This document shows, piece after piece, positions 11,379 through 55,281 of a stretch of DNA of 64,000 bases. Under the pieces are notes generated by a model that saw only the letters and a program-made list of their open reading frames with translations, ran no database searches and was not told the origin of the DNA. Every line of letters starts with the position of its first letter. Positions within the stretch are counted from its first letter, which is position 1. This DNA is from a virus: the IMG/VR virus record IMGVR_UViG_3300021963_007958; one strand, 5' to 3'. Position numbers and translations under genes: made by a program.

Positions 11379-12365
11379 TTAGTTTCCCTTGGGTTTAGGA
11401 ACTATTGAGTATCTCTCTCTAGCCTTAGCATAAAGCTCGTCCAGATTTTCTTCCGTTAGAGTATTAGAAAGAATTTTCTTCAGTTGATCTATTTCTTTCC
11501 CTTTATCGGTAAAAGAATCCATCTGTTTAGAAGATTCTGGCTTCCAGTCGTGGGACTTAAGGATTGAGTTTAGATAGTTTATAACAGGCTCTTGATACAA
11601 GCTAGGATCTTTCTTTAAGCTAGCATTGAAAAGATATTGGTGAACTGGGTCTTTGGCCAGGTCTGTTAATTTTCCAGTTTTCCTGATAAATTTTCCCTTT
11701 GGAGTATTAAAGATGGTTTCAAACCCAGGCTTATCTCTATAGACCTCTATATCGGGAGAATATGAATCTGAATTGAGATAAATTTTTAGAATATTCAAAA
11801 AATCCTCTGCATCTTTCTTCTTCAGTTCAATTTCAGTTCCGTCCTCTAATTTTGCAATCCAGTGAAGATTTTTCTTCTTTGTGATCCCACCTATAGGAGA
11901 ATCCATTCCTAGAATTTCCAGAACTGTATTGATGTCTCCTGAAGCATCATCTTCGGGGGTTTGAAAATGTTTAGACTCGATGAAAGAATTTATAAATTCG
12001 TCCAGGTTTAATTGATTTTCTTCATTATCCCAAAATCTAACGCCGGGCTTTGTTTCTATGATTGGATTTTTAGAATCTCCAGAAACAACAAAAGCATCTT
12101 TTGGAAAATAGATCGGATCAGATTCCTGATTGTCCCCATAAATATATTTCAAGCACAAATTTGGTAGATCTGAAGACACGTCAGAGGCAAAAATAGAGTT
12201 AGCATCTGGATCTCCCCCCATTTCAGGACAGCAGGATTTCATCTTGTATCCCCATTTCTCAAAAGGACCTAATATTCCAAAATTTTTCTTATATGAATTT
12301 CCTTCATTTAGAGAATAAGAAAAATCCGAAAAGTTAGAAATCAAATTGTTCTTCATATTATTCAT
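11379..12365 (-). CDS. hypothetical protein with capsid-targeting-like leader
   Basis: N-terminus MKNNLISNFSDFSYSLNE. Confidence 0.6.
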   Translation of the reverse strand: MNNMKNNLISNFSDFSYSLNEGNSYKKNFGILGPFEKWGYKMKSCCPEMGGDPDANSIFASDVSSDLPNLCLKYIYGDNQESDPIYFPKDAFVVSGDSKNPIIETKPGVRFWDNEENQLNLDEFINSFIESKHFQTPEDDASGDINTVLEILGMDSPIGGITKKKNLHWIAKLEDGTEIELKKKDAEDFLNILKIYLNSDSYSPDIEVYRDKPGFETIFNTPKGKFIRKTGKLTDLAKDPVHQYLFNASLKKDPSLYQEPVINYLNSILKSHDWKPESSKQMDSFTDKGKEIDQLKKILSNTLTEENLDELYAKARERYSIVPKPKGN

Positions 12366-12798
12366 CTCTTCCGAACTCTACAATGACTTTAAAATCTTTC
12401 ACCTCCATGGATTTTCTCATGTCGATGATTATTTGTCTGGGATAAGTTGGTACTACAAAAGAAAGAATATCAGGAATTACGAGGCCTGGATCTATATTAA
12501 TCCCTGGCTGAATCTCAAACTCGAAGGTTTTTTTGTCATTTGGATAATCATCAACAGAAAGTTCAAGTTCAATCCTATGAATTCTAAAATCTATTCCGTC
12601 TATCCCTCTCTTGTTTCTCATAACAATAGCTTCATATTCAACCTCACATTTGGCATCATCTACATCCTGAATTTGTGGGGGATTTCCCTTCACGATAATA
12701 TCGGTATACTTTAAATCCGAGATAAAGTAGTGATCGTTAGAAAAGTTTTTGTCTTTTCCTGCAATGTAGCTATTATAGTCTTCAACTCTATTAATCAT
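12358..12798 (-). CDS. hypothetical protein
   Basis: 146 aa ORF preceded by GATATATA at 12822-12829. Confidence 0.6.
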   Translation of the reverse strand: MINRVEDYNSYIAGKDKNFSNDHYFISDLKYTDIIVKGNPPQIQDVDDAKCEVEYEAIVMRNKRGIDGIDFRIHRIELELSVDDYPNDKKTFEFEIQPGINIDPGLVIPDILSFVVPTYPRQIIIDMRKSMEVKDFKVIVEFGRDE

Positions 12799-12919
12799 CT
12801 TAAATGTTTAACAATTTTATGTATATATCCTTTTCTAATACACAATATGAAGGAAGAGATTTGAGATTAAAATTACAGGGAAGAATATATAAGTCATCCA
12901 ATAAAACTAAATTAAGACT

Positions 12920-13636
12920 ATGAAAAACCTCAGTCCTGTTTGGTTTCTTAAGTCTCCTATAGACACAGAACAAAAACACTACATTTTACTGGCATTCCTC
13001 CAAGAGGTCAATAAGGAGATCAGGAGCAATAACATCTATTCTCCAATCAAGAGGATATTTTCTCTGATTAAAGAACTTGATTATTTTCTCAAAAGTGATA
13101 GTTTAGACGGATTTAAAAAACTCCCCCTTACAGAAGACGACAGATCTATTATCGACTTCTACTCCAAAAATCCAATCTCTAAGGAAGATAGGGAGGAATT
13201 AGATTCTATTGCAAAATCTGCTCTAGTAATTTTATACAAATACGCAGACATGGGGATAAATCTATGGAAAGATTTAGAGAGTAGAATTAAAATGTATAGC
13301 TTAGAGATACAAGACCCTGAAAAGGATCACGGAATTACAATCTTTAGAAATATGTCAACGGATGAGGTTTTTCCCTACTGGTGGAAAAGAACAGAAATGA
13401 AATTAGGAGATCAAATTAAGAAGGGTATAATGCTAAAAAAAATACACATTCCTAACAGCTACTTCTCTATGTCTTATGAGTTTATCGTTCACGAGACTAT
13501 GGTTTCTATGGGATTGAGAAACGGAGGGAAAATCCCCTGTACAATCATAGAAATCTCCGAGGACTTCAATCAGAACTCGGAGATCTTCAAAATTGCTAAG
13601 GAAAAATTTATTCAAGAAATAGACCAGGAGAATTAA
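12920..13636 (+). CDS. hypothetical protein (only plus-strand gene)
   Basis: 238 aa ORF with A-rich leader and AATATATA upstream; convergent stop overlap with the 13633 gene. Confidence 0.7.
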   Translation: MKNLSPVWFLKSPIDTEQKHYILLAFLQEVNKEIRSNNIYSPIKRIFSLIKELDYFLKSDSLDGFKKLPLTEDDRSIIDFYSKNPISKEDREELDSIAKSALVILYKYADMGINLWKDLESRIKMYSLEIQDPEKDHGITIFRNMSTDEVFPYWWKRTEMKLGDQIKKGIMLKKIHIPNSYFSMSYEFIVHETMVSMGLRNGGKIPCTIIEISEDFNQNSEIFKIAKEKFIQEIDQEN

Positions 13637-13998
13637 AAATCCTCTAGTCTCAAGATCTCAAATCCTTCAGAGTCGTGATTCTCAGACTCGCTAGTGTCCA
13701 TGTTAAATACCGTGTTCGGATCCCCAGGATTAAGACCAACCATGTTGGTGTAATCTCTGTTTCCCTTATCATTATATCCAGGGAAGATGATACCAGCTTC
13801 GTCCGGACTCCAGATTGCATTTGCATATCCAACCCAGTCATAAGCAGGCTCTCTTTTAATCGTGTGTAGACCTGTCTTATCTCCACTTAAAGGATCTTGA
13901 ACATCCGGTGCTAAATAGTTGAATGTATCGTCCATTACTCTAGATCTAAATTGCTTAAAATCTAGAATTTCTCTTTTTGAAACGTCTTCTAAGTTCAT
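13633..13998 (-). CDS. hypothetical protein
   Basis: 121 aa ORF with ILDFKQF at the N-terminus and ILRLEDF at the C-terminus. Confidence 0.6.
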   Translation of the reverse strand: MNLEDVSKREILDFKQFRSRVMDDTFNYLAPDVQDPLSGDKTGLHTIKREPAYDWVGYANAIWSPDEAGIIFPGYNDKGNRDYTNMVGLNPGDPNTVFNMDTSESENHDSEGFEILRLEDF

Positions 13999-14009
13999 AG
14001 TTTTATTAT

Positions 14010-14687
14010 TTATTGTCCACCAACGGTTCCGAATGCTCCGCTTGGATTAGTTGATCCCCCCATCACTCCTTTTAAGATAGATGTTACATCCATACCGGAT
14101 TTTTCTGCTGCTTGTTTAACTGCAGGATCAGTAGAAATTTTCTTCTCTTCTGCTGAGGTCAATTCGAATGGATTTTTTCCGGATTTTACCTGTGCGAAAG
14201 GAGATTTGTCTTCTCCTCCTGCAATAGAGCTCAAAATCATAGTCCAGAAATTAAGAATATTCTCTCTGAACGTTGCCTGTTTAGCAGAATTTGAAATCAT
14301 CTCTTTAATTGTTCTGTAGATCCACCCATTTTTATCTTCAATTTTAAATCTGGTTGCTAGTCCATCTACTCCAAGTTCGGTAATAGTTTCCATCGTAACA
14401 TCAGTTAGCTTAGGGGCAAGAGTTTTAACAGAAATTCCGCCTTCACCTTTTATGATAAAATCATAAAGCTCAGAAACATCCACGGTTTCTGCAAAGTTTC
14501 TAATTATGGTACCAAATAAAGATTCGGGTTTAACTCCAAAGAAGCCAAGAAGATAATCCGACACCTTACCTTTTATAACATCTCCGACAGCAGTTGCTCC
14601 GCTTCCAAGAAGATTTGTAATAAAATCCATCGGTCCGTCTTCGTTAACTTTCTGAAACTCAGAAAAATTCTTAATCATTTTACTCAT
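14010..14687 (-). CDS. putative internal virion protein
   Basis: Leader MSKMIKNFSEFQKVNE; GATATATA at 14713-14720. Confidence 0.55.
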   Translation of the reverse strand: MSKMIKNFSEFQKVNEDGPMDFITNLLGSGATAVGDVIKGKVSDYLLGFFGVKPESLFGTIIRNFAETVDVSELYDFIIKGEGGISVKTLAPKLTDVTMETITELGVDGLATRFKIEDKNGWIYRTIKEMISNSAKQATFRENILNFWTMILSSIAGGEDKSPFAQVKSGKNPFELTSAEEKKISTDPAVKQAAEKSGMDVTSILKGVMGGSTNPSGAFGTVGGQ

Positions 14688-14737
14688 GTAGAAAAAATAT
14701 ATTATTTTGATCTATATATCTTTTCTCTTCAAAAGAT

Positions 14738-16738: not shown

Positions 16739-19165
16739 TTAGTCAGCTGAGGGAAAATAGATTCCTTTAGATTCTCCTCTCGAAAGATCATCAGAAGTCT
16801 TAGCATTCATTCTCGAGACGTGTTTCTTGACGGAAGGCAAATGAACAGACTTAGCTCTTCTTAGATTTTCTTCGAAGACTTTTTTGTTTTTGCTTTCCCC
16901 AGATCCTTTGTCCTGTTTAGTAGCTTTTTTAATTCCATCTTTTTTATCCAGAATTGCAACTAAATCTCCGCTAGTTTCAGAAGATCCAATAGACTCTTCA
17001 GACTCCAACTTATTCAACTCTCCGTTGGTCAAAACTTCATCGAGAATAATATCAAGGACAGGAACGAATTTTTCTTCCTCTTTGTCGTAAGTGAACATAG
17101 TTGCAATAAAAGCAACTAGATTTGCAAGAAGCCCAAAGTCAGACTCGCTAAGATCCTGAATTTTTTCTTCCAGTTGTGCACCTCTAACAAAAGCAGATTT
17201 AACAGCTTCTAGGCCTTCAGACGAAAGGTAGTGGTTTTTATACCCCTTAGTTCCGAAGTGAGAATAAAGTTTATCGTAGGTTTTGCTATTCTCATCTTCT
17301 TCGTCTCTATTGTGGGAGAAAATCGTCTTAGCAAGAGAAGCTAGCTCGTCCGTGTCTATTCCACCAAAGTTAGAGTAATAGCTAGAATACCATTCCGCAA
17401 AGTCTTTTACATCATCCTCATCTACGTCTCCTACAACTTCTTTCCATTTTGGCCAGTTGCAAGGTCTCTTAGCATTAGTCATCAATCTCTTAGCAGCATA
17501 CAGCCCATCAATCTTACTTCCTTTATAGTCGACCCAGAAATAAAGAGGAAGGTTCCCCTCTTTAGCGTCTTCTGCAGTTTTGGTCCATGCGATCATAAAC
17601 TCTGGGGAATAAGAAGCTCTAAGCGTTCCATCCTCTCTTAAGAATGTCTCTTCTTCTGCTCCCTTTACGAACCCTTTGCCTCTTAAAAGTTTAGCAAGTT
17701 CATAAGCTTGATCTGTGTTGTCCGACCTGTCTCCCCTTCCAAGGGCAGATCTCCCACCTTTAGAATTTTCAGGTTCAGAAAGATCTTTAGCATATTTCTC
17801 CAGTTCAGTCTCCAGCTTATCCGCATCGATGTGAATAGAAGCCTCGTTAACAGATCCGAAGAACTCAAAAGAACTAAAAACATTAGATTCATTCAGTTTT
17901 CCACCAGTGTACAAATAACTCTCGTTAACATACTCTTTTCTTAAAATATCTAAACTATCAGCAATTGCTTCCTTATCTGCTTTGTTGATCTTATCTGCAT
18001 CTAGAATGGTATCAAGAAGTGCCCTGTCAATCTCTCCACTAACGTTCTTGTTTCCGAGAACCCCCTGAAGGGACTTAACCGCCACAGAAAATGCAGAAGT
18101 GTATTTACCATCTGCTCCTCCTCTTTTTGCAAGTAGATCCTTAATAGGAGGGAAAGCATTCATTAGAGCCTTTTGGGTATTTGCAATAATTAGAGATCCC
18201 TTAAACTTCTTATCAGAATCGTTGTCTCCAACTTTAAGAGGGAAAACTAAGGAAGCAACTTTGTGATCATAACCTTCGGTTTTTTCTCTCATCACATCCT
18301 CAACGTTAGACTCTTCAACAGTTGCTCTAGTTAGAACATCCATTGCAGAAGAAACTAAATCTTTAACGTCTTCGAACTTGCCGGAAATTTCATCGTCAGA
18401 AAGAATCTTTTTGAAAGGAGCTTCTGCTGCTCTCATGCAGTACGTGTAAAACTCTTTAGCAAGTTTATCGGTCTGGGATTCAAGATCCTTCAAAGACTTC
18501 TTCTCTTTATCATTTGAAATCTCTTTCTTATGATTAATAGCAGAAAGTTTCTGGTCTAGCTCAGTAAAGATTCTATACCAGTTTCTTCCATATCCATTAT
18601 CTGAAGTTTTCCCTGCAGATTCAGGAATAAGAACCATTCTAAGTTTATGTTTAAGAGCTTCAACTCTTCCTTTTAGTCCAAGGCCAAAAGACTCATTTAG
18701 TTCTTCCTCTTCTTCCTTCTTTCTCTTATAAGCACTCTCAAGTGAAGCAGCATATTTAGAGGTTCTCCCTTGGAAATATTTGATAACTTTATCTTCTAAT
18801 TTAGGGTCAATCTCAATAGCTCTCTTGATAGCATCAGCAAGCTGTTCCATCGAGTCAATATATAAAGACTTGACGTCGGCAAGGGCAGAATTTTCAATGT
18901 CGGTTTCTTTAGCATAGTCTTTCATCTTTGCAAGTAGAGTCTTGAAAGAGGAAGAATTTGCGGTGTCCTTTAATTTTTCTTTAATTGTGGACATCTTTCT
19001 CTGTTTTGCTGGTGCAAAATCAACGACTACCTTTTTAAATACATCAAAGAAAGAAGTTGACAATTTTTGAATTAGTTCATCAACAGACTCATTCTCAAAT
19101 ATTTTGAATGTCTCGATGGACATCATTTTTGCAATAGGGTTGATATTTAGATATTTTTGTGACAT
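16739..19165 (-). CDS. large putative internal virion protein with peptidoglycan-binding-like segment
   Basis: FPLKVGD...TQKAL...ADGKY...AVKSLQ...SGEID resembles PG_binding_1; several LNE/VNE motifs. Confidence 0.55.
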   Translation of the reverse strand: MSQKYLNINPIAKMMSIETFKIFENESVDELIQKLSTSFFDVFKKVVVDFAPAKQRKMSTIKEKLKDTANSSSFKTLLAKMKDYAKETDIENSALADVKSLYIDSMEQLADAIKRAIEIDPKLEDKVIKYFQGRTSKYAASLESAYKRKKEEEEELNESFGLGLKGRVEALKHKLRMVLIPESAGKTSDNGYGRNWYRIFTELDQKLSAINHKKEISNDKEKKSLKDLESQTDKLAKEFYTYCMRAAEAPFKKILSDDEISGKFEDVKDLVSSAMDVLTRATVEESNVEDVMREKTEGYDHKVASLVFPLKVGDNDSDKKFKGSLIIANTQKALMNAFPPIKDLLAKRGGADGKYTSAFSVAVKSLQGVLGNKNVSGEIDRALLDTILDADKINKADKEAIADSLDILRKEYVNESYLYTGGKLNESNVFSSFEFFGSVNEASIHIDADKLETELEKYAKDLSEPENSKGGRSALGRGDRSDNTDQAYELAKLLRGKGFVKGAEEETFLREDGTLRASYSPEFMIAWTKTAEDAKEGNLPLYFWVDYKGSKIDGLYAAKRLMTNAKRPCNWPKWKEVVGDVDEDDVKDFAEWYSSYYSNFGGIDTDELASLAKTIFSHNRDEEDENSKTYDKLYSHFGTKGYKNHYLSSEGLEAVKSAFVRGAQLEEKIQDLSESDFGLLANLVAFIATMFTYDKEEEKFVPVLDIILDEVLTNGELNKLESEESIGSSETSGDLVAILDKKDGIKKATKQDKGSGESKNKKVFEENLRRAKSVHLPSVKKHVSRMNAKTSDDLSRGESKGIYFPSAD

Positions 19166-19173: not shown

Positions 19174-19461
19174 TTATCCTTTTAGTTCAGATATTTTTTT
19201 ATCTATCTGGGGTTTTAGAGCATTTAAAAGAGGGATCATTTTACCGTAGATCTGAGCTTGTTCTCCAATATACGCAGACTCAGCTAGAAGCTCTTTTGCT
19301 TCATCTCCTGCTGCAGATTTTTTTGAATCTAGCATTTTTATTTTTGCTGCTTTCAGCTGATCTTCTATTTTAGAAATCTCCAGCTTTGTATTACTAATTT
19401 CTGTATTAATACTATCAGCTTCAAATAAGAAGTCCTCGTATTTTTTTATTGTATTAAGCAT
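19174..19461 (-). CDS. small coiled-coil putative internal head protein
   Basis: Leader MLNTIKKYEDFLFE. Confidence 0.55.
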   Translation of the reverse strand: MLNTIKKYEDFLFEADSINTEISNTKLEISKIEDQLKAAKIKMLDSKKSAAGDEAKELLAESAYIGEQAQIYGKMIPLLNALKPQIDKKISELKG

Positions 19462-20317
19462 TTAAGTGGCTAATTTTTTCTCTTATTTTATCGATGAACT
19501 CACCAACTTCATAAATTCTTGAATTATATTTATTCAACGTAAGAGTTTTATCTTCTTTAGATTTAGCTTTATCTAAATCTCTACCCTTAGATCTTCTAAG
19601 AGTTCTAAGTTCATTTAAAGCAAGGTTCTTTCTGTCGATTAAAGATTTTTTAAGGGACTTTAACTGAGATGGACTGTAGTTTTTAATTTCAGATCTAAAA
19701 GAAGGTATACTCATTTTAATGAGAGAAGATAAACTTAGACCTTCTACAGAATCTTCCCCTTTCTTATCTTCTTTTTCAACATCTTTAGAGATAGAATCAA
19801 ATCCTTTCTCCTTTCTCTTCATATCCTCATAAGACTTTTTATAGTCCCCGTAAAGTTTATCCTCTAAATTTTTATCCGGAAACTTCTTAGAAATCTCATA
19901 AAGATTCTTCATTACTTCAACTTCAGCTTCGGATTTTTTTAATTCCCAGTATTTGTTAACCCTGGAATTTTTATCCACAATCTTTGTTGCCTGTTCGTTA
20001 TAAGATCTAATCTGTTGAATTTTTTTCCTATAGGCGTCAGCAACTCTTTCTTTGGCTTCCTTAACCTTTTTCCTAAAGTCCTTCTCTTCTTCAGGGGAAA
20101 GTTCACCCGTGTCAACCTGTCCTTTAAGATCATAGATTAAAGACTGGTCTTTCTCCCACTGGGTAGCATATTCTTTCTCCAAATAGGTTAGATCTGCTAA
20201 AATAGAATCTATCTTCTGGATTTTACCACCAAAAGTTCTGCTCAGCCAATTAACGATTCCTTCCTCAGATTCGTCGATAGAGTAATATTGTTTATCCCAC
20301 TCGGAAAAATTTAACAT
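19454..20317 (-). CDS. coiled-coil putative internal head protein (paralog of 20319..21422)
   Basis: EGIVNWLSRTFGG and KYWELKKSEAE match the neighbouring gene. Confidence 0.6.
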   Translation of the reverse strand: MLNFSEWDKQYYSIDESEEGIVNWLSRTFGGKIQKIDSILADLTYLEKEYATQWEKDQSLIYDLKGQVDTGELSPEEEKDFRKKVKEAKERVADAYRKKIQQIRSYNEQATKIVDKNSRVNKYWELKKSEAEVEVMKNLYEISKKFPDKNLEDKLYGDYKKSYEDMKRKEKGFDSISKDVEKEDKKGEDSVEGLSLSSLIKMSIPSFRSEIKNYSPSQLKSLKKSLIDRKNLALNELRTLRRSKGRDLDKAKSKEDKTLTLNKYNSRIYEVGEFIDKIREKISHLNA

Positions 20318-20318: not shown

Positions 20319-21422
20319 TTACTTTTTATTTTTTACTGAAGTATTTACCTTATTGGAAGTTCCAGCCGGGGTTTCTTGTTTTTTAACCTCTTCCGCCTTC
20401 TCTTTTCCTTTCTCCTTTGCAGTTTCTTTTGAAACATTCTCGGTTCCAGGAATAGGAAATCCTATGCGTCTTCTTTCTGCTGGTTCCATCTTAGCTTCAA
20501 GAGAATCCATCTCTTTAGCGAGCTTATTGATATCATTAAAGTCTTGACTAGCAATAACCTTCTTGCCTTTGTTTTTTCTATCCAGCTCTTCAATATCCTC
20601 CTTAGTTCCCTTCAGTTTATCAATTTCTCTCTGGATTTGTTTTTTGTCGAAATCTTTCTTGGTGTTTTTGAGTTCCTTTTCGAGATCTATAATTTCGTGA
20701 TCGAGCTTAGCTATAGCTTCTATTCTTCCTTTTTTGTTCTTGAGAGATTCTCTATAGTCAGAAGAGTCTTCTTTTTCTCTCTTCTCTTGATTCTTAGCAT
20801 CAGTCTCTAGCTTCTTTTTGGACTTTTCTGCTTCATCTTTAGCCTTTTTGATTTCTGCTTCTAGATCTTTAAGATCTTCAGGGCTTGAAGATGCTCTCTG
20901 CTTAGCTAATCTATATTCAAATTCAGCAAGATCAAGTTCATCCTGTGATTTTCCAGCCTCCCAATATTCCATTCTTCTCTTGTTACCCTTGATAGCATCT
21001 TTAATTGTAGAGATTGCCTTCTCAATTCTCAGATTTATCATTTTATTATAAGACTGATGCTCTTTCGTTTTAGCCTCTAAAGTCTTATTAACTCTATCGA
21101 TACCAGCTTCATCTTTAGTTTTAGAAAGCTCCTTGATGCTATTCTTCAGAGAATTTATTTCATCTTCAAAGGTATATTTTTTTTGAAGTGATTCTTTCTC
21201 CATTTTTAGAACTTCTGCTCTAACTTTATCGATCATACTGATGTAAGAAAGTGATCCTAAAAAAGTCTTAGACAAAGTATTTTTTATTGAATCAAAAACT
21301 CCTTCATTAACAGATTCTTCTCCAGCAAAGTAATCTGCAAGAGATTCTGCAAGAGCCGGAGTTATTTTCCCATTTAAAGGATTATTTTCTTCAAATTCTT
21401 GAAAGCTTGGTATTAAAGTCAT
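20319..21422 (-). CDS. coiled-coil putative internal head protein
   Basis: Leader MTLIPSFQEFEE; VNEGVFDSIK..LSKTFLG and EYWEAGKSQDE; GATATATA at 21448-21455. Confidence 0.6.
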   Translation of the reverse strand: MTLIPSFQEFEENNPLNGKITPALAESLADYFAGEESVNEGVFDSIKNTLSKTFLGSLSYISMIDKVRAEVLKMEKESLQKKYTFEDEINSLKNSIKELSKTKDEAGIDRVNKTLEAKTKEHQSYNKMINLRIEKAISTIKDAIKGNKRRMEYWEAGKSQDELDLAEFEYRLAKQRASSSPEDLKDLEAEIKKAKDEAEKSKKKLETDAKNQEKREKEDSSDYRESLKNKKGRIEAIAKLDHEIIDLEKELKNTKKDFDKKQIQREIDKLKGTKEDIEELDRKNKGKKVIASQDFNDINKLAKEMDSLEAKMEPAERRRIGFPIPGTENVSKETAKEKGKEKAEEVKKQETPAGTSNKVNTSVKNKK

Positions 21423-21477
21423 ATCTACAGTTTAGTTATTTATGCTCTATATATCAACAGAAAAATAATTTCCACAG

Positions 21478-21535: not shown

Positions 21536-23242
21536 TTAAGCTAATCCACCAACTGGAACGTTTACGTAGAAAGTGAAGTAAAGAGTTTCTGGGTTGAAAC
21601 CTGCTTCTACTAGTGCGTATCTGCTCTTAACTGCGATCTTAGGAGACATAGTACCTTCAGAAATGGTTTGGATTGACTCCGCCATCATGTAAGGCATGAA
21701 CTTAAGACCTGGCTCGTCATCTCCACCTTTTCTACCGATACAAACTCTTGTGTCGCTGTATTGCATGTTTTGGTCAACATATACAGTCATACCAGCTAGA
21801 GAACCAACTGGGTAAAGAGTACCGTTATTCTGAGTTAGAGTGTTAGAGAATGGAGCAAAAGTGAATTGGCTGATGTCTTGCATCGCAGACGCTAGGTAAG
21901 CGTTAGTTACGATGAAGTTAGCAGGACCTCTTCTACCTCTGTTAGCTACAACGTTAGCAGCTGCTAGGATTCTAGAGAATAGTCTTCTCTGAAGAGTAGA
22001 CAAGTTCTCGTATCCACCGTTAGCAGGACCTGCTGGAAGAGACATAGTAGCTAGGTTGTCAGTCTTATCCATGTAAACTAGGGTGTTAGTACCAGTAGCA
22101 CCACCAAGAACCAAGTTCAAGTTAAGGTTTTGACCTTCAATTTGGTTGAAGTTGTAGCAGTTAGACCAACCTAGTTGGAATGCTCTTGACAAGATGTGCT
22201 TGTTGATAGACTGAGAAACTTCGTTAACAAGTGCGTTCTCGATCATAGAGATTACGTCGATACCGAACTGCTTGTTAAGATCTTGGATTTGCTCAGTTGT
22301 TACAGAAGCAGCAACTTGGAAAGTGTCAGCTTCTACGAACTTAGTGAAGGTTGTTAGACCCATTGAGTTGTAGTAAGTGCTTTCTGCAACTGATCTCAAC
22401 ATTGGGTTGTAAGTCTTCTGACCATTTACATAAGGACCTTGGAATGCTTGATCATCATAGAAACCAGCACCTGAGAAACCTTGGATGTGATCTTCTAGAG
22501 CTTTAACTAGTTGAGCAACACCTGCTGCGTTTCCGATGTCATTTGAGTTAACAGAAGTACCGATAAGAGCACCTGCAGTTACAACAGCAGCAACAGTTTC
22601 ACCTGCAGTGATAGCAGTAATTCTGAAGATTGGGTAGCCATCGATTCTTGAGTAACCAACGAAAGCGGTAGTGATGTAAGCACCAGCTGAACCAACTTGT
22701 GTGATGTAGTAAGTGCTTCCTACAGTCATAGCAGCAGCGGTAGATCCCATAGGAACCTTAATCATAGTAGGAGCAACTGCTAGAGCTTCAGCAGCTGTAG
22801 TTCCAACTTGGTTAGAATTAGGAGAAAGTTTACCACCTGCGTAAACGTAGTCTAGGTAAGAAAGAACTCCTGAAGGACCAGACATAGGAATAACTGGAAC
22901 GATGTCAAAACCAACAGTCTTCGCAGCAACTTGAATTGCCAATGGAAGAAGTGAAGGGAATTTGTCACCAGAACCTTGCCAGGTTGAGCTGTAGAAACCA
23001 GCGTTTGGAGAAAGTCCACCTACTGATCCAGCTTGAGTTGTTTGAGGGAATACAGGAGGTTGAACTGAACCCATACCGTTAACAACTGCTAGAGAGTTGT
23101 AAGCACCAGCTGATTCGTTCAATGAGTGGTAGTGGCAGTACTTAGAAAGCCATTGAGTTTTTGATGAATCGTTGATACCAGTCTTAGACTCGATGATAGG
23201 AGCCCAGGTATCGAAGATTTCTTTTTCGTTAATAAGTTTCAT
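21536..23242 (-). CDS. major capsid protein (T4 gp23-like)
   Basis: VPVIPMSGPSG, TTEQIQDL, EVSQSINK, RGRRGPANFIV, PGLKFMPY, PKIAVKSRYAL; follows the protease gene; strong codon bias. Confidence 0.92.
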   Translation of the reverse strand: MKLINEKEIFDTWAPIIESKTGINDSSKTQWLSKYCHYHSLNESAGAYNSLAVVNGMGSVQPPVFPQTTQAGSVGGLSPNAGFYSSTWQGSGDKFPSLLPLAIQVAAKTVGFDIVPVIPMSGPSGVLSYLDYVYAGGKLSPNSNQVGTTAAEALAVAPTMIKVPMGSTAAAMTVGSTYYITQVGSAGAYITTAFVGYSRIDGYPIFRITAITAGETVAAVVTAGALIGTSVNSNDIGNAAGVAQLVKALEDHIQGFSGAGFYDDQAFQGPYVNGQKTYNPMLRSVAESTYYNSMGLTTFTKFVEADTFQVAASVTTEQIQDLNKQFGIDVISMIENALVNEVSQSINKHILSRAFQLGWSNCYNFNQIEGQNLNLNLVLGGATGTNTLVYMDKTDNLATMSLPAGPANGGYENLSTLQRRLFSRILAAANVVANRGRRGPANFIVTNAYLASAMQDISQFTFAPFSNTLTQNNGTLYPVGSLAGMTVYVDQNMQYSDTRVCIGRKGGDDEPGLKFMPYMMAESIQTISEGTMSPKIAVKSRYALVEAGFNPETLYFTFYVNVPVGGLA

Positions 23243-23274: not shown

Positions 23275-25347
23275 TTAGAATTTTCCTTCGAGAGCTTCAG
23301 CAATCGATCTTAGATAATCGTTAGAATATCCAATAGGAGTTACTGGTGTCTCGTTGGTTTCGATATTTTCGTTCTCAACAAGTTTTTGAAGACCAAGATT
23401 TCTGCCAAGTTGACGAGTTGACCAGAAGTTTTTGATTTGGTAAGGAGTTTCTAAGTTGTAGAAGGAAGCTTGAGCAATCAAAGATTGTCTGTGTCCTTCA
23501 CTTAGAGATTCCCAAACCTGAGCATATTCTTCAGGAGCTTCGTCTACAAATTTGTAACCTGCGCTTGGTTTAGATTCTTCTTCGTTCAAGTTCTCGTTTA
23601 GAACTAGGTCTGCCTTTTGGGTTTGAGCAGGCAACTGGAATCTTTCAGCTGCTTTGTTTGTAAGGGTTTCAGTTTTTTGGGTTTGAACTGATTCTATTAG
23701 TGCGTCAATTTTGCTAGAAACTGTTGAGTAATCTCCTGCAAAACCTGACTCAAATAGACCTGCATTAGAAGCTAGGTCTGCTTGTTCGATTGCGCTCTCG
23801 TTGATTGAATCACCAAGAGAGTTGTTTACGCTTTCTGCAATATATTCAGAATAAGCGATGTTGTTTTTAACTTTTTCTGCTAGATAGTCAGAATAAGCAA
23901 TTCCTTTATTTAGGTTTTCAGCCAGATACTCAGAGTAAGCAATTCCTTTATTTAGGTTTTCTGCTACATACTCGGTGTATCCGATACCTTGATCTAGTTT
24001 TTCTGCGATATATTCGCTGTAACCGATACCCTGATCTACTTTTTCTGCTAGGTACTCTGAATAAGAAATTCCTTTGTCAAGATTTTCTGCAAGATACTCA
24101 GAATAAGAAATGTTGGTGTCTACTTTTTCAGCCACATACTCAGAATACTGGATTGACTCGTCTACTTTTTCTGCTAGATATTTAGCGTATTCTACAGACT
24201 TATCAAGATTTTCAGCTACATACTCCGAATAAGAGATTGATTTATCCACGTTTTCAGCAAGATACTTAGAGTAAGAAATATTCTTGTCCAAGTTCTCAGC
24301 CAAATATTTAGAATAAGTGATGCTGTTGTCTAGATTTTCTGCCAAGTATTCTCCATACTTAATAGCTCCGCTTAGAGTTTCTGCTAGGTAGTTAGAATAT
24401 TTTTCTAGTTTAGCAACTCTGTCTTCCATAGATTCAGTAGAAGTAGCAGAAGGACCGTTGTTGTAACCGTTACCAAGAGCAGGCATAGGCTTGTTGAAGC
24501 TCAATGCTTGACCTTCTTCAACTCTTTCTGATCTTAAACTAGCAATTTCAGCCTTCATGGCGTCCATTTCTTTCTTTAAGAACATTGTGTACTGGTTAAG
24601 ATCATCAGCACTTACAAATTCTCTGTTAGGGGTATTCTCCATAATAGTGGATTTATTTTTATCTTTGTTGATTATTTTTTTAAATTCTTCGTTGTCGTTG
24701 ACATTATATATCCTCAAAGAATCGCTATTTTTTAGTCCTAGTGATTCATTTACACATTCTAGACCATTAATAACGCTTTTTTGTCTCTTATATATAACTT
24801 CATCGTGTGAAAAACCAGCACTTTCGTATACTCTCTCAAGCTGAGCGTCCTGAAATCCAGGGTCTGCTACAAGATCATAAGTGAAGATTTTCTTGATTTG
24901 AACCTTTTTATCTGGTCCTACATTACCAGCAGCTCTAGAAGAAATAGAAAGAGGAACTCCTGCATCTACAAGTCTTTTTGCAATTTGTCCTGCTGGGGTG
25001 TCTAGTAATCTAACTTTAATTCCAATTGTTCTTCCCTCTCTGTCATGAGTTAGATCCTCGATGACGTGGGAAACATTATTTAAAGAAATATCAAACTTCT
25101 CTGGGTGATCTAACTCACCAACAAGTCTTTTTTGTTTGATTTTATCCTTTAGATAATCTAAATGCGGAAGGTATTCACCTTCTTCGTAGATACGATTGTT
25201 ATTGTTTTCTTTCCCGAACTGAGCAGCAATACCCTTAAGGATATACTCTTTTCCTTCAGAAGTCATCTCTTTGGATGCTTCTAGGATTTGATTCTGCTTC
25301 TCCAGAATGAAAACCATATTTTCGTTAAGTGTTGAAGTTCTTGACAT
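23275..25347 (-). CDS. prohead protease (gp21-like) fused to scaffold (gp22-like)
   Basis: NNNNRIY, LVGELDHP, SISSRAAG, TYDLVADPGF protease motifs followed by a coiled-coil repeat region. Confidence 0.9.
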   Translation of the reverse strand: MSRTSTLNENMVFILEKQNQILEASKEMTSEGKEYILKGIAAQFGKENNNNRIYEEGEYLPHLDYLKDKIKQKRLVGELDHPEKFDISLNNVSHVIEDLTHDREGRTIGIKVRLLDTPAGQIAKRLVDAGVPLSISSRAAGNVGPDKKVQIKKIFTYDLVADPGFQDAQLERVYESAGFSHDEVIYKRQKSVINGLECVNESLGLKNSDSLRIYNVNDNEEFKKIINKDKNKSTIMENTPNREFVSADDLNQYTMFLKKEMDAMKAEIASLRSERVEEGQALSFNKPMPALGNGYNNGPSATSTESMEDRVAKLEKYSNYLAETLSGAIKYGEYLAENLDNSITYSKYLAENLDKNISYSKYLAENVDKSISYSEYVAENLDKSVEYAKYLAEKVDESIQYSEYVAEKVDTNISYSEYLAENLDKGISYSEYLAEKVDQGIGYSEYIAEKLDQGIGYTEYVAENLNKGIAYSEYLAENLNKGIAYSDYLAEKVKNNIAYSEYIAESVNNSLGDSINESAIEQADLASNAGLFESGFAGDYSTVSSKIDALIESVQTQKTETLTNKAAERFQLPAQTQKADLVLNENLNEEESKPSAGYKFVDEAPEEYAQVWESLSEGHRQSLIAQASFYNLETPYQIKNFWSTRQLGRNLGLQKLVENENIETNETPVTPIGYSNDYLRSIAEALEGKF
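23815..24402 (-). repeat. 14 tandem 42-bp (14-aa) coding repeats, consensus SYSEYLAENLDKGI
   Basis: Counted directly in the translation. Confidence 0.9.
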
Positions 25348-39019: not shown

Positions 39020-40639
39020 TTATGCTGGTGGGGCTTCTGCTGCTGCCGGTGCTGCTGCCGGTGCTGCTGCCGGTGCTGCTGGGGTAGCTCCTGCTGCCGG
39101 TGCTGCTCCCTCTTTTTTCTTCTCCTCTGCTTTCTTTCTAGCTTCTGCGTTTGCTCTGATATCGTCGCTAGTAAGACCCAAATAATTTTCAACTAGGTAT
39201 GGAACTGAGAAGAATCCTCCACCCGTGTCGTCGGTTAGAGTCATCAATTTATCAACAGATTCCTTTTTCTTTAGGATAATCTCCATTTCCTGATTTCTCT
39301 TAAATGGGTTATCCGAGACGTAATCAAGACCAAGTTGACTTTTAAACATGTAATCTTTCTCCAGTTCCGGGAAATCTTTACACATTTGAATCCACAGAGG
39401 CTTAATTAAAATGTCCTGAAAAGCAGTTCTAAGTCTATTGATAAACTTAGCAAATCTAATTTCCTGTTTGTCTAAACCCTCCGCTGCATTTGCATACTTT
39501 CCCATCGATCCCCCATCTGGACCATTAAATCTAGAATTAGGAACTTTAGATTCGTTAATCAGTTTGTCAAAAAAGTATGCTAAGGGTGCAGGGTCATTAA
39601 GGTTCGGCCCTACATTATTTAGAGGTTCAATAGTGGGGGTTCCGTTCACACCGGAAGGCATTAAGTAGTTTTTAAAGAACTGAATCTTCGGTGCTCCATT
39701 TACAAATAATTCTCCACTTTGATCGTTTAGGGAGATATCTTCTTTATAGATACTCATCAACTCTCCTAACGTCTGCATTCCTTTTTGTTGAGATCTAGTT
39801 CCGATTGGAACTGTCATCTTCATTCTGAAAGAAGCATTCATTACAGACCAAATAACCCTTGTGTATTCTATAATTCTAAGGATGTTATAAGGTCTAATAA
39901 GTCTTTCGGTGTAGCTGACTCTCGAAACTGTATTCCCCTTTGCATAAGAAATGTAGATAATCTGGGAGTCATATAGCATTCTTTTTCTCCTTGGATCTTT
40001 GAAATATTGCCACCAAACGTTCAGATAGCTTCCGTCATTTTGTTTTTCGACAGAAGGCATCAAAGTCATAGCATCGATCTCTTTGAATCCGATGATGTTT
40101 TTTCCTTTGTCGTCGTAGATAATTTCAAATGCAACATATCCGTCTACCAGGAATTGTCTGAAATACTGCCAAGCACTAATGTCGTCAGTGAATCCAAACA
40201 TGTCATACAATTTCTTGTAATTTTCGTTGATCTTATCGATGACTTTTTCCTTCAGTCCAGTTAGATTTAAGAAAGCAGGATATGCAAAAAAGTTATGAGA
40301 ATCGTATGTGATTGACTCGTCATTAACTACATCCAGGATGAATTCAATCTCAGGGTTTAGTGAAAATTTTCTAAGATAATCCCTTTTACCTTTGTAGTCC
40401 TTGTCAAAATAAGAAACATACTGTCTCGACGTGGTATCTTGTCTAGCCAGAGCATAGAGCATCGTCTCGTCCTCAATCATTCCTTTTTTGAGGAATGCTG
40501 CTTCGGTTTGACCGATGGCTTGAGAATTTTTAACCACCATGTCTCCATAGTTTAACCCAAAGTTACTTAGATTCTTTACTGAATCTCTAATTCTTTGGAA
40601 GATAGGACTACCTTGTGGATTTTCTAAAAAACCTGCCAT
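39020..40639 (-). CDS. portal protein, copy 1 (T4 gp20-like)
   Basis: FRQFLVDG, SYTERLIRPYNILRIIE, KVPNSRF, QEIRFAKFINRLR; Ala/Pro-rich C-terminal tail. Confidence 0.88.
   Translation of the reverse strand: MAGFLENPQGSPIFQRIRDSVKNLSNFGLNYGDMVVKNSQAIGQTEAAFLKKGMIEDETMLYALARQDTTSRQYVSYFDKDYKGKRDYLRKFSLNPEIEFILDVVNDESITYDSHNFFAYPAFLNLTGLKEKVIDKINENYKKLYDMFGFTDDISAWQYFRQFLVDGYVAFEIIYDDKGKNIIGFKEIDAMTLMPSVEKQNDGSYLNVWWQYFKDPRRKRMLYDSQIIYISYAKGNTVSRVSYTERLIRPYNILRIIEYTRVIWSVMNASFRMKMTVPIGTRSQQKGMQTLGELMSIYKEDISLNDQSGELFVNGAPKIQFFKNYLMPSGVNGTPTIEPLNNVGPNLNDPAPLAYFFDKLINESKVPNSRFNGPDGGSMGKYANAAEGLDKQEIRFAKFINRLRTAFQDILIKPLWIQMCKDFPELEKDYMFKSQLGLDYVSDNPFKRNQEMEIILKKKESVDKLMTLTDDTGGGFFSVPYLVENYLGLTSDDIRANAEARKKAEEKKKEGAAPAAGATPAAPAAAPAAAPAAAEAPPA
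39039..39107 (-). repeat. 12-bp tandem repeat encoding the (PAAA)n tail of portal 1
   Basis: gctgctgccggt repeated three times plus a partial copy. Confidence 0.8.
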
Positions 40640-40672: not shown

Positions 40673-41281
40673 TTATTGAATTAATTTCGACCTATAGTTA
40701 GTATATATCTCGTTAATAGATAACCCCTGGATCGAAGAATATTTTAGAAAGGGTAATTTTGACCAATCAGAATAGGATACCCACTTAATGTCTTTCATAA
40801 ATCTATATTTAAATCCGGTAAAAGATGTATTATATCCAGTTCCTTTAAATAATGGAGGGATACTTCTAGATTCTACCCTAATAACACTGGGAGATCCTCC
40901 CTTCTCAACTTTTTTAGTCCCCTCTTCTACTAGAGGTTTAAATTGATCATAGAACTTCTGGATTATCTCTAATCTTTGCTCCGGAGGGGTCACAGTTAAA
41001 TCAATTGACTTGATAACTATGTTTTCCCCTACCTTCTCTGAGGATAGGTAAAGGATAAGGGGGTTCCTATCTATAAACTGGACCTTTTCGCTAAGCTCGG
41101 TGTTCGTGTCATAGGTAAAGAAATAAATATTTCCGGGGATCAAAGTTCCGTCAAATTTATACTCCGCACCTGGACCATTAACTCCATACTTCTCCAAAAA
41201 ATATAAATCGGTATTTGTTGAAAGAGCAGAAACTGAGGGAGCAGATTTTCTGTATTCTATAACTTGTTCTCTGAAATCCAT
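40673..41281 (-). CDS. DNA end protector gp2-like protein
   Basis: PGNIYFFTYD..IDRNPLIL motif; adjacent to gp4. Confidence 0.6.
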   Translation of the reverse strand: MDFREQVIEYRKSAPSVSALSTNTDLYFLEKYGVNGPGAEYKFDGTLIPGNIYFFTYDTNTELSEKVQFIDRNPLILYLSSEKVGENIVIKSIDLTVTPPEQRLEIIQKFYDQFKPLVEEGTKKVEKGGSPSVIRVESRSIPPLFKGTGYNTSFTGFKYRFMKDIKWVSYSDWSKLPFLKYSSIQGLSINEIYTNYRSKLIQ

Positions 41282-42212: not shown

Positions 42213-42851
42213 TTAGTCCATGTCGAACCAGCTCTTTTCTCCAGGCTCTGGAGCTTTTACTGCTGGTCTATAAGCTCTATCCGTTGTTCCGGTTAGAATT
42301 TTATTGATACTTCTATCGATCGCATCATAGTCAACTTGTTGAGATCCAGAAGGTTCTTTAACTACTTTTCTCATTAATTGATTATTAGCTCCAAGAAGTC
42401 TTGTTTTAATTAGCGTTCTAAGATTACCGTAAATCTGACCGTCCGTTAGGTTTGGTTTATCTACACTCTTGTGCCAGTCTTGAAGAACATCTTTTAGAGT
42501 TGTAGCAATTACTTCATCAAACTGCTCGTCGCTCAAATTGGACCATCTTCTTCTGAACTCGCCATAAGCTACAGAATTGATTAACTCGACAAGCATTTTA
42601 GCGAGTTTGTGGGTTACTGTTCTAACAGGTCTGCGGGGATTGCCTAGAACTTTAATATAAACTGTTTCCCCTTCTGCAAGAGATTTCTTAACCTCATCTG
42701 CAAGTTCTTTCTGGTCAATAAACTTTTTAGCCTCGAGAATAACCCCTTCAAAGTAGTTATCCGGCTGAACATCAATGAAGATATTTTCTCCTAAGTATAG
42801 AGGTTTAGATTCTACTAAGAAATTTTCAAAATTTGATAAGTTTTTCATCAT
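42213..42851 (-). CDS. divergent gp55-sigma-like paralog with capsid-targeting-like leader
   Basis: FIDQKELADEVKKSLAEG..VTHKLAKMLVELINSVA aligns by eye with YVKNSELMKAILESKEKG..LTPETIRMFYLMINGIS of the neighbour. Confidence 0.55.
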   Translation of the reverse strand: MMKNLSNFENFLVESKPLYLGENIFIDVQPDNYFEGVILEAKKFIDQKELADEVKKSLAEGETVYIKVLGNPRRPVRTVTHKLAKMLVELINSVAYGEFRRRWSNLSDEQFDEVIATTLKDVLQDWHKSVDKPNLTDGQIYGNLRTLIKTRLLGANNQLMRKVVKEPSGSQQVDYDAIDRSINKILTGTTDRAYRPAVKAPEPGEKSWFDMD

Positions 42852-42862: not shown

Positions 42863-43198
42863 TTATTTCTTAATTGCTTTTTTAGCTTGTTTTCTAGCTT
42901 CATCTCCAATTTTATTTAGGAACTTCACATAGTCAACTGACTTAGTTTTTGTCAATGGATAATCTCCAATAAGATCGGATTTAATTCCAGAATCTTTTAC
43001 AGTGATTGAAGATTTTATTCCATCAATGTCTCTAGAAAGGGTTTCTCCACTCTCTTTATATCCATATGCCTTGGTAGCCATGTCGATGAAGTTCTTTTTG
43101 AATAAAGGATTAACAGCTGCTTTTCCTGCAGGTCCTTTTCCAAAAGCTTCGAATAATTCAGATTCGTTAATTTCTGAGTAAGATTTTAAATTTTTCAT
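42863..43198 (-). CDS. small putative internal head protein
   Basis: Leader MKNLKSYSEINESELFE; GATATATA at 43206-43213. Confidence 0.6.
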   Translation of the reverse strand: MKNLKSYSEINESELFEAFGKGPAGKAAVNPLFKKNFIDMATKAYGYKESGETLSRDIDGIKSSITVKDSGIKSDLIGDYPLTKTKSVDYVKFLNKIGDEARKQAKKAIKK

Positions 43199-43217
43199 AG
43201 TTATCTATATATCAATT

Positions 43218-51995: not shown

Positions 51996-52067
51996 TTAGT
52001 AGTTCTTTAGATCTCTTACCATCTAATATACGGACCTAAATTCTATAAGCTGAAAAAATCTTGAAAT

Positions 52068-53596: not shown

Positions 53597-54692
53597 AGAT
53601 ATCTGAAATAACGAAAAGAGATTTGAACCCTCCGGGAAAGGTTATGGGTGCGGTGACCTCGGCACCGCAGGTAGGACATTTGATGTTAATATCTAGTTCT
53701 GTCCCAATTTTTATAGTTTCACAAAGTTCATAGTAAAGAGAGAATTCTTCTTTAGACCAGTTGTCTGATTCTCTCATTCTTAGAACAATCTCATTAAATC
53801 CTAGATTTCTCCATTCACCAAAAATGAAAGGAGCAATTTTAATAAAGCTCTCGTCCACCTCAATACCTCTTTTATCACACTCAAATATAAAATCAGAAAC
53901 TGCACCCATTACTCCGATAGAAGGAACGGACATTGTAATTTCTTTTCCGATTTTTCTAACAGGAAAAACGAAATTTCTGGTTATAGGAGAATAATACTTC
54001 ATTACCCTTGGATCAATATCATAGGAAGAAAGAACTCCAGTTCTTAGTTCTATCCCGTTATTGATTGGGCAGGAATTCTTATCTTTACACTTAGACTCGG
54101 GAGTAATGATAATTCTGTTTTCTCCCTGGATAAAAGTCAAATCCCTAATTGCCATTACGAGAAAAAATCTGTCCTCGTGTTTTAAATCTTTATATGAAAC
54201 AACACCTTCGCTAGGAAAATGCATAGTGCTACACTTGCTAAGGATGAAATTTAGTTTCTCGTCAAGATCGATTAGATCGTCTTCGTCAATAGTTGAAAAG
54301 TGTCTAATCTCTTTAACTTCGGCAGATCTAATTGCAATCTTTGTTCCCTCGGGATAAAAAAATCCTCTGGAAGGAAGAACTGTTAATGGAAGATTTTTCC
54401 AGCCAAAATCCAGCCCAGGAGAAAACTCCGGCTGTGGGATTCTTTTTGGTTCAATTCTTCCCAAGTCAGGAGCTTGCTGAACAGGAGGGGCGACAGGTTC
54501 TTCTCTGGGTTCTTCGAAGATAGGAGGGGAATATAAAGGGGTTTGTCTTGCCTTTAAATCTTCCGGGGTTGGATTAATTGGGGTTTGAGGTATAAAAGGA
54601 TCATCATATACAATTCCCCCTTCCATCTCTTTTCTAGCTAGGATTTCTTCTGGGGAGAGACCTTTTAAAATTCCACTTTCGTTTGGATTCAT
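53580..54692 (-). CDS. baseplate hub assembly / tail chaperone (gp26/gp51-like)
   Basis: LPSRGFFYP, DRFFLVMAIRDLT, C-terminal CPTCG. Confidence 0.75.
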   Translation of the reverse strand: MNPNESGILKGLSPEEILARKEMEGGIVYDDPFIPQTPINPTPEDLKARQTPLYSPPIFEEPREEPVAPPVQQAPDLGRIEPKRIPQPEFSPGLDFGWKNLPLTVLPSRGFFYPEGTKIAIRSAEVKEIRHFSTIDEDDLIDLDEKLNFILSKCSTMHFPSEGVVSYKDLKHEDRFFLVMAIRDLTFIQGENRIIITPESKCKDKNSCPINNGIELRTGVLSSYDIDPRVMKYYSPITRNFVFPVRKIGKEITMSVPSIGVMGAVSDFIFECDKRGIEVDESFIKIAPFIFGEWRNLGFNEIVLRMRESDNWSKEEFSLYYELCETIKIGTELDINIKCPTCGAEVTAPITFPGGFKSLFVISDIFGELL

Positions 54693-54730
54693 AATTATTT
54701 ACTTTATACTTTATATACTCATCCACATAA

Positions 54731-54765
54731 AAAGACGAATATTCTTTTTTAGAATATTCGTCTTT
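54731..54765 (-). terminator. 15-bp hairpin terminator
   Basis: AAAGACGAATATTCT-TTTTT-AGAATATTCGTCTTT. Confidence 0.75.
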
Positions 54766-54786
54766 GGAAAGTTTCGTTAATTTATG

Positions 54787-55281
54787 CTAAGCGTTAATGT
54801 TAGAAATTGCAGCTTTAGATCTTTTTACAGAATCTCTTTTTGCTGATTCTATTGGATTACACCAAATAAGTCTATCTTGATCCTCCGTAGCCTTTAGATC
54901 ATCATATAAAGGTTTTACAGCCTTTAATAGTGCTTCTGAGAAATTATTCATCTTTTTATTCTGATCAGCATTTCCTTGGTACATGCTTAAGGTTGTATTC
55001 CCGAAACGTTCTTTGGCTTTATCCGGGGTTGGAAACTCCATAGAAGTAGGGAAAAAATCTTTCCCCGCTAATTTTAGGGCCCAAGCAATCAAATATCTAT
55101 TATTAAAAGAGGTGTCGCCAAAAACTTTTTTAATATTATCAAAAGTGAGACTGGTCTGTTGTTCATCTTTTGTATTTTTTCTAAGCTCCTCGATGGCAGC
55201 CTGTGCTCTTTTTGGATCCCATTCTTGTACTCCCTCGTTTAGAGCCTGAACAAATGAATCGAAATATGATAAATTTTTCAT
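54787..55281 (-). CDS. putative internal virion protein
   Basis: Leader MKNLSYFDSFVQALNE. Confidence 0.55.
   Translation of the reverse strand: MKNLSYFDSFVQALNEGVQEWDPKRAQAAIEELRKNTKDEQQTSLTFDNIKKVFGDTSFNNRYLIAWALKLAGKDFFPTSMEFPTPDKAKERFGNTTLSMYQGNADQNKKMNNFSEALLKAVKPLYDDLKATEDQDRLIWCNPIESAKRDSVKRSKAAISNINA

Follow-up and report, generated by a model that had tools for sequence, protein, structure and literature searches.

Candidate capsid-targeting leaders on otherwise unrelated proteins of an uncultured T4-type phage

Results

Otherwise unrelated proteins share an N-terminal leader

The window analysed here is a stretch of 64,000 nucleotides (nt) from the IMG/VR record IMGVR_UViG_3300021963_007958, and the element under study is a short N-terminal leader found on a series of otherwise unrelated proteins encoded in it. 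The window has a G+C content of about 38%, and every gene except one lies on the minus strand. It includes a T4-type morphogenesis core: a large terminase, a sheath protein of 1122 amino acids (aa), two tail-tube paralogs, two portal paralogs, a gp4-like head-closure protein, a gp2-like DNA-end protector and a gp55-like late sigma factor. A gene for a gp21-family protease is followed directly by that of the major capsid protein. This capsid protein shares 45% identity with its counterpart in a 462-kb uncultured phage, 38% with those of Lak megaphages and 31% with those of Tenacibaculum jumbo phages. At least 169 related IMG/VR loci, on contigs of up to 434 kb, encode capsid proteins of 69–89% identity. 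No near-identical DNA was found in the phage collection.

All 66 open reading frames (ORFs) of the window were scanned for the leader, which consists of an aromatic core and a downstream [LIV]-x-E motif that we take as the predicted cut site. A preliminary description of this DNA had listed nine strong leaders, and all nine are present, at minus-strand starts 12365, 14687, 19461, 20317, 21422, 28703, 42851, 43198 and 55281. The 328-aa protein encoded at 11379–12365 has a leader of 21 residues (12303–12365) with the core F-S-D-F and a predicted cut after L-N-E, and its orthologs keep the motif. In the 225-aa protein (14010–14687) the leader is 16 residues long (14640–14687), with the core F-S-E-F and a predicted cut after V-N-E. 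A 95-aa protein starts with 14 leader residues (19420–19461), in which the core Y-E-D-F is followed directly by L-F-E. Two further leaders belong to a 287-aa protein (16 residues, 20270–20317; core F-S-E-W, predicted cut after I-D-E, which is L-N-E in most orthologs) and to a 367-aa protein encoded just downstream of the capsid gene (at least 12 residues, 21387–21422; core F-Q-E-F). A 264-aa Pol-beta-type nucleotidyltransferase (27909–28703) begins at a GTG codon and has a leader of 14 residues (28662–28703) with a predicted cut after L-V-E. The leader of a 212-aa protein is also 14 residues long (42810–42851), and its core F-E-N-F is followed directly by L-V-E. In a 111-aa protein (43148–43198) the core is Y-S-E-I, and the two sites I-N-E and L-F-E give a predicted leader of 10 or 17 residues. 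The ninth leader (16 residues, 55234–55281) starts a 164-aa protein encoded just downstream of the tail-tube genes, with the core F-D-S-F and a predicted cut after L-N-E.

The motif also occurs inside an 816-aa protein (25443–27893), where the preliminary description had placed two internal copies. Both were found, one in residues 87–98 (27600–27635), ending in L-M-E, and the other in residues 556–569 (26187–26228), ending in L-N-E. The same description had counted about 14 tagged proteins. Ten of these are robust and two are plausible with a cut-like site only, namely an 808-aa protein with a possible propeptide of 24 residues (19094–19165), in which the L/I-[FN]-E site is the only conserved part, and a 161-aa protein with a possible short leader of nine residues (31676–31702), which ends in I-N-E and has no preceding aromatic pair. 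Orthologs of the former keep L-[FN]-E near residue 24, and those of the latter keep only the short M-K-x-I-x-x-[IL]-N-E. The remaining two, starting at 12798 and 13998, are unsupported: their orthologs keep aromatic patterns and lack the cut site, and thus they were not counted as tagged. The gp2-like DNA-end protector (40673–41281) may be a further member beyond those first listed, as judged from its sequence. Its possible leader (41255–41281) is weak, with F at position 3 and V-I-E at positions 7–9, and 36% of the orthologs in its family fit the strict leader pattern.

The tagged proteins had been called unrelated, and this is borne out by an all-against-all BLASTP of their mature parts, in which the 367-aa and 287-aa paralogs were the sole related pair. 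The 212-aa protein was also considered as a paralog of the gp55 late sigma factor. This was not supported, since BLASTP gave no alignment and hhalign a probability of 1.5%, the latter from shallow alignments.

The leader is enriched and conserved as a peptide

Seven of the 66 ORFs match the strict full-leader pattern, as against 0.53 expected from shuffles of the N-terminal residues. The maximum in 2000 shuffles was four matches, and internal windows used as pseudo-N-termini gave the same result. The aromatic core starts at residue 6–8 in six ORFs (0.81 expected). The preliminary description had left room for the motif being equally frequent in replication proteins; none of the approximately 13 replication and nucleotide-metabolism proteins of the window carries the leader.

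When 169 unique leaders from the window and its relatives were combined, the logo read M-[KN]-[NK]-[ILV]-[LK]-[SKN], then F (86%)-x-[E/D]-[F/W/Y], then 0–10 residues, then [L/I/V]-[N 43%]-E, with A or S mostly as the next residue. The P3 residue, third before the predicted cut, is L in 54%, I in 25% and V in 15% of these leaders (94% L/I/V). The Glu at P1 was imposed on this set by the search pattern, and its invariance was therefore judged independently in an alignment of 29 orthologs of the 264-aa protein, in which almost every sequence has Glu at the predicted P1 position and the strongly conserved part begins immediately past the predicted cut.

Ortholog families were drawn from 240 IMG/VR loci. 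The strict pattern was present in 38–91% of the members of tagged families vs 0–3% in untagged families. The family of the protein starting at 55281 scores zero only because a Ser stands in its core at the position for which the pattern demands D, E or N; its leader is conserved when judged by eye. The motif is retained in orthologs of 25–60% identity, while the surrounding leader residues and the length of the spacer vary freely. The internal copies in the 816-aa family likewise stay in place, near residues 100 and 600, even where orthologs are only 25–30% identical. Synonymous codons are used freely at the conserved leader positions (the P1 Glu is GAA in 89 and GAG in 69 cases), which argues that selection acts on the peptide. 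Leaders are 10–21 residues long, and in the AlphaFold2 (AF2) model of the nucleotidyltransferase residues 1–20 are disordered and lie outside the fold.

Some orthologs of the 111-aa protein (L104 3458–3757, L094 3453–3770 and L095 1632–1949) begin close to the second predicted cut, with no aromatic leader, which suggests that the tag was gained or lost within one family. Clear copies of the window-type leader were not found in the head regions of LR756500, Lak-B5 and PTm1. Two Lak-B5 (L245) proteins, at 8464–9702 on the plus strand and 34933–35997 on the minus strand, have another N-terminus in common, M-N-K-L-I-K-K-L-[VM]-E-[SG]-L-F-D-D, and several other Lak-B5 proteins start with K-x-L-x-E-S-like stretches; from these sequences, Lak may use a leader dialect of its own. 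The coding density of Lak-B5 is 91% when TAG is read as Gln vs 70% with standard stops.

The prohead protease carries a tandem array of motif-class units

The preliminary description had invoked a gp21-type protease as the enzyme that would cut the leaders. A gp21-family protease is indeed encoded beside the capsid gene, and it holds a tandem array that had gone unnoticed. The protease (690 aa, 23275–25347, minus strand) has a gp21-type domain in residues ~35–170 that is fused to a long helical C-terminal extension. It matches phrog_207 (E = 5e-39) and Pfam S77 (31.0 bits vs a cut-off of 27), with S80 also matched, and BLASTP aligns it with T4 gp21 (E = 9e-8), including the GELDHP/GELNHP and SSR motifs, which we take to hold the catalytic His and Ser of the gp21 family.

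Residues 317–512 (23812–24399) make up an array of 14 consecutive units, each 14 residues long and of the form Y-x-x-Y-[LIV]-A-E plus seven more residues. About 50 protease orthologs of 56–89% identity have 12–14 units with a strict 14-residue period. The 462-kb relative has a degenerate version of the array, and PTm1 has a different repeat at that place; T4 gp21, gp22, gp67 and gp68 have no tandem array of this kind. The array is predicted to be helical with low-to-moderate confidence (AF2), and this is the only prediction that we retained from the model of the whole protease, whose predicted local distance difference test score (pLDDT) of 49.6 was too low for a fold search. The array units and the leaders are alike in residue classes and spacing and not in exact residues. 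Since no separate scaffold gene lies between the protease and capsid genes, the extension of the protease is, by analogy, likely to serve as a scaffold.

The neighbouring major capsid protein (21536–23242) has a predicted propeptide of 43 residues (23114–23242) that ends in L-N-E before S-A-G, a cut site assigned from the motif only. In the 816-aa protein, the piece between the two predicted cuts includes Gly/Ala-rich hydrophobic stretches (residues ~215–235 and ~300–330). By analogy with SPN3US gp47 as described in PMC5694885, this middle piece could be a membrane-inserting ejection protein.

Tagged genes follow a late-type promoter motif

The motif GATATATA occurs 16 times in the window, always on the coding strand, vs 2.5 copies expected. 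It lies 15–30 nt upstream of the genes for the protease, the sheath and one portal protein, and of four tagged genes, those starting at 14687 (motif at 14713–14720), 21422 (21448–21455), 28703 (28725–28732) and 43198 (43206–43213). The remaining tagged genes follow within the same gene runs. The late-type motif that had been described upstream of most tagged genes is therefore real, standing directly before four of them, with the rest in the same runs.

A second promoter-like motif, CCGTATATT, is present in three copies on the minus strand (30273–30281, 37397–37405 and 52025–52033; 0.22 expected). Each copy stands shortly before a gene of DNA metabolism (for an Fpg-like protein, a ligase and a dCMP deaminase), so that this motif may mark an earlier gene class.

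The tag is modular and abundant in a complete relative genome

The 264-aa protein has a Pol-beta nucleotidyltransferase signature and a confident model (pLDDT 83). A fold search with this model returned Pol-beta-class nucleotidyltransferases only, and a PDB profile search gave only a weak match to DrrA (E = 0.03). Because the fold matches were at low TM-score (about 0.23), no specific activity was assigned to it. The family comprises 4414 cluster representatives. Relatives of the enzyme carry the window-type leader, a W-x-x-[YF]-L-x-E dialect, no leader or other domains in front, and since one and the same domain occurs in all these contexts, the tag is modular. The distant relatives P0049, P0055, P0057, P0060 and P0061 start with a double-glycine-type leader (…E-L-S-D-E-E-L-E-Q-V-V-G-G-S). 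Leaders of this type, normally on bacteriocin-like peptides, are a different removable leader, here on the same enzyme domain.

One related locus, L077, belongs to an IMG/VR genome of 434,509 bp that has terminal repeats and is rated complete. Thirty-one of its 638 ORFs fit the strict pattern, and about 22 of them are clear by eye. Among ORFs of at least 140 aa there are 21 matches vs 6.9 in controls (control maximum 13). When promoter association was taken as the presence of the motif within 60 nt upstream, GATATATA was found directly before 10 of the 31 tagged genes vs 56 of the 607 other genes (odds ratio 4.7, p = 5e-4). The tagged proteins of this relative include an SLT transglycosylase, a CHAP hydrolase, a glucosaminidase, an OmpA-type protein and a MoxR-type AAA ATPase. 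Judged by their sequences, cell-wall enzymes behind a head-loading tag would fit proteins that are delivered by the virion; the internal core protein gp16 of T7 carries a transglycosylase domain.

Tagged proteins are present in virions of a cultured cyanophage

The nucleotidyltransferase family also occurs in cultured T4-type phages. In S-CREM2 (OR473000.1) the homolog is ORF156, 35% identical, and it was detected in the virion proteome with six unique peptides (Table 3 of PMC10665884). We read the N-termini of all 52 S-CREM2 virion proteins. A T4-type 10-mer of the form M-K-x-F-x-x-F-L-x-E starts the virion SAM hydrolase, APH-like kinase, cytidylyltransferase, ORF13 and ORF136, and the virion protein ORF15 starts with a window-type leader. 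The tagged ORFs are ORF6, 13, 14, 15, 136, 154 and 175. ORF175 (55 aa) is tagged yet was undetected in virions, perhaps because of its small size.

An automatic pattern finds the tag on 5 of the 27 virion proteins that are non-structural or hypothetical and on 3 of the 180 ORFs whose products are not among the virion proteins (odds ratio 13, p = 0.001). Two more tagged virion proteins escape this pattern, one through a GTG start and the other through an N-terminal extension. The tag is absent from the canonical tail and baseplate proteins among the 52. Targeting sequences or propeptides are not mentioned in the S-CREM2 paper (PMC10665884). S-CREM2 and the window thus share a cargo family, the nucleotidyltransferase, which is in virions there together with tagged enzymes; unlike the window leaders, the tag of S-CREM2 has a fixed 10-mer form, and the phage is only distantly related.

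Comparison with T4 and with giant phages

In T4, a capsid-targeting sequence (CTS) is carried by the internal proteins IPI, IPII, IPIII and Alt and removed by gp21 (Mullaney and Black 1996, reviewed in PMC9026906, PMC3012670). The first ten residues of IPII and IPIII are M-K-T-Y-Q-E-F-I-A-E. Residues 4 and 7 are the main determinants of targeting, residues 8 and 10 govern processing, and gp21 cuts after L/I-x-E (PMC9026906). The window leaders and the array units have the same layout of aromatics three apart followed by an aliphatic residue, any residue and Glu. The T4 spacing is exact in the leaders starting at 19461 and 42851, and that at 28703 is off by one. Like the CTS, the leaders are N-terminal, 10–20 residues long and common to otherwise unrelated proteins, and a gp21-family protease gene lies beside the capsid gene. 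The proposal of a T4-like capsid-targeting leader cut by a gp21-type protease thus agrees with the layout of T4 residues 4/7 and 8/10; of the four weaker copies in the preliminary description, two do not hold.

There are also differences from T4. In the window-type leader the aromatic pair and the cut site are 0–10 residues apart, and P2 is mostly Asn. The window has internal copies in a polyprotein, and a protease with 14 tandem motif-class units. The scale is far larger, with at least 9 candidate leaders in 64 kb and ~22–31 in the 434-kb relative. With a spacer of anywhere from 0 to 10 residues, the aromatic pair cannot occupy one set subsite of the protease, and this speaks for docking as a function of its own, as in T4.

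Propeptides of the giant phages phiKZ, 201phi2-1 and SPN3US are cut by gp175/gp245 (PMC5694885, PMC10052503). They are mostly more than 100 residues long and are cut after S/A/G-x-E, and their targeting role is only inferred (PMC5694885). The window resembles these systems in belonging to a huge phage and in encoding a gp21-related protease with a C-terminal region (removable in those phages, where many head proteins are processed); their propeptides are also thought to target ejection proteins into the prohead. Unlike them, the window leaders have 10–21 residues and mostly L/I/V at P3, and so differ from the phiKZ type in both length and cut site. A further likeness is seen in the Tenacibaculum phage PTm1, whose ORF-300 ("prohead core scaffolding protein and protease") joins a gp21-type domain to a long helical stretch of repeats rich in [L]-x-E sites. 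As in the window, this gene immediately precedes the capsid gene; the repeat unit differs. In the literature searched, no virion proteomics was found for PTm1 or for the clade of the window, and no paper links the CTS to cyanophages or huge phages.

Other genes of the window

The two portal paralogs are full-length and in tandem (37412–39010 and 39020–40639, minus strand). Both match phrog_213 and both are retained in relatives; the upstream paralog has an Ala/Pro-rich tail at its end. The tail-tube paralogs are likewise in tandem (55284–55862 and 55877–56428, minus strand), and their N-termini are near-identical. The sole sizeable plus-strand ORF (12920–13636, 238 aa) occupies a 450-nt gap between minus-strand genes, and it has no Pfam match.

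Discussion

The distribution of the leader, its layout and its neighbourhood lead us to regard the leaders as T4-type capsid-targeting propeptides, an interpretation that we consider likely. Judged from its genes, this phage probably loads its particle with proteins of various kinds, some of them enzymes. What we infer in this scheme is that the aromatic pair targets the cargo, that the leader is cut at the predicted Glu, that the array acts as a scaffold and that cargo is ejected.

In the scheme that we favour, a pair of aromatics at a distance of three residues, with an acidic residue between them, would form a docking element, in most cases preceded by M-[KN]-x-[ILV]-x-[SKN], and the cut site [LIV]-x-E would follow 0–10 residues past it. 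Leader-bearing proteins made late would be drawn into the assembling prohead core, which would be built around the gp21-type protease with its helical, scaffold-like 14-unit array in the C-terminal half. Once the protease fires, it would cut after the Glu and free the mature cargo inside the head; the 816-aa polyprotein and the array of the protease itself would be broken up as well. The cargo would include the Pol-beta-type nucleotidyltransferase here, and three peptidoglycan hydrolases and the MoxR-type ATPase in the complete relative. At least part of it probably exits with the DNA at infection.

Of the other explanations that we weighed, the one with most in its favour is that the leader is a propeptide and nothing more, which the protease removes as a cut mark or to end an inactive state of the enzyme; packaging would then be set by other parts of the proteins or by co-assembly, and the aromatic pair would serve in substrate recognition instead of targeting. 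The best-conserved feature is indeed the [LIV]-x-E site with its nearly invariant Glu, a cut-like site persists in the proteins starting at 31702 and 19165, which show no clear aromatic pair, and head propeptides whose targeting role is merely inferred do exist in giant phages (PMC5694885). A distance of 0–10 residues between the aromatic pair and the cut is, however, hard to fit with fixed protease subsites, the equivalent T4 residues 4 and 7 act in targeting separately from processing (PMC9026906), and the unrelated mature domains have nothing but the leader in common. We therefore think this explanation rather unlikely. Still less probable is that the leader docks its proteins for some other purpose late in infection, for instance to a chaperone, to a compartment or in the assembly of tail or baseplate, and that the protease is nearby by coincidence. 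The tagged gene at 55281 does adjoin the tail-tube genes, but the leader ends in a gp21-type cut motif, the head protease holds the motif another 14 times and the neighbouring protein twice, and in S-CREM2 it is virion enzymes that are tagged and not the canonical tail and baseplate proteins.

We give very little credence to the idea that the leader is an export or membrane-targeting signal, although SLT, CHAP, glucosaminidase and OmpA-type proteins are among the tagged proteins of the 434-kb relative. Sec, Tat or lipoprotein signals would have some 7–15 apolar residues as a core behind a basic N-region, whereas the leaders have a longest apolar run of three residues and a maximum 10-residue Kyte–Doolittle mean of 0.73; because they have no hydrophobic core, and include acidic residues, they are not export signals. 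Cytoplasmic-type enzymes (the nucleotidyltransferase and the AAA ATPase) are tagged too, and the internal copies are far from any N-terminus. That the pattern arose by chance, from AT-rich composition or as a nucleotide-level signal for translation start we count as refuted. F, N, K, E and I do have AT-rich codons in a genome of 38% G+C, but shuffling of the N-termini yields about 0.5 matches where seven are observed, and orthologs conserve the leaders, and also the internal copies, with residue-class substitutions and free synonymous codons.

Several observations weigh against reading the leaders as capsid-targeting propeptides. When the genes of the complete relative were classed by their nearest upstream promoter motif, the association with tagged genes was not significant (p = 0.14). 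A position-specific scoring matrix of exact residues built from the 14 protease repeats failed to retrieve the leaders, none of its top five hits being near an N-terminus. The C-terminal half of the protease, for which the structural model is of low confidence, gave only a 14-residue local match to the T4 scaffold gp22 (BLASTP E = 0.66) and no hit to phrog_237, whereas T4 gp22 itself scores 1.6e-92; its candidacy as a gp22 homolog is not supported on these grounds. The proteomic support comes from S-CREM2, a distant T4-like cyanophage with a fixed 10-mer tag, and packaging, cutting and ejection in the clade of the window are predicted from sequence. Individual cut sites are uncertain because [LIV]-x-E is short and common.

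If the leaders are capsid-targeting propeptides, the system would be a variant of the T4 CTS, with a two-part leader of variable spacer, internal copies in a polyprotein, a motif-class array in a protease–scaffold fusion and a larger cargo list. We know of no established binding partner of the CTS, or mode of its docking to the core, in T4. A bolder proposal, which we put forward tentatively and hold to be doubtful, is that the tag mimics the scaffold's own repeat, each leader being one more copy of the aromatic-x-x-aromatic-[LIV]-x-E unit that the protease–scaffold fusion has 14 times. Cargo would then co-assemble into the core through the contacts that hold the array together, and it would be freed by the same cut that dismantles the array. 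Were this so, the clade would reveal what the CTS binds, and the use of a CTS to load enzymes by the dozen (cell-wall hydrolases, nucleotidyltransferases, ATPases and kinases) would be ancestral and widespread in the T4 superfamily, from cyanophages to 400-kb phages.

The T4 tag serves as a tool for packing foreign proteins into phage heads. The hundreds of natural leader variants in this clade would separate the docking element from the cut site, and the 14-unit array of the protease is a candidate docking partner. Tag-driven loading of enzymes would extend beyond the T-even phages to huge uncultured freshwater phages and cultured cyanophages, and the sequence rule may serve to predict, from nothing but the metagenomic genome of a phage, what its virion carries and which proteins are likely to be injected.

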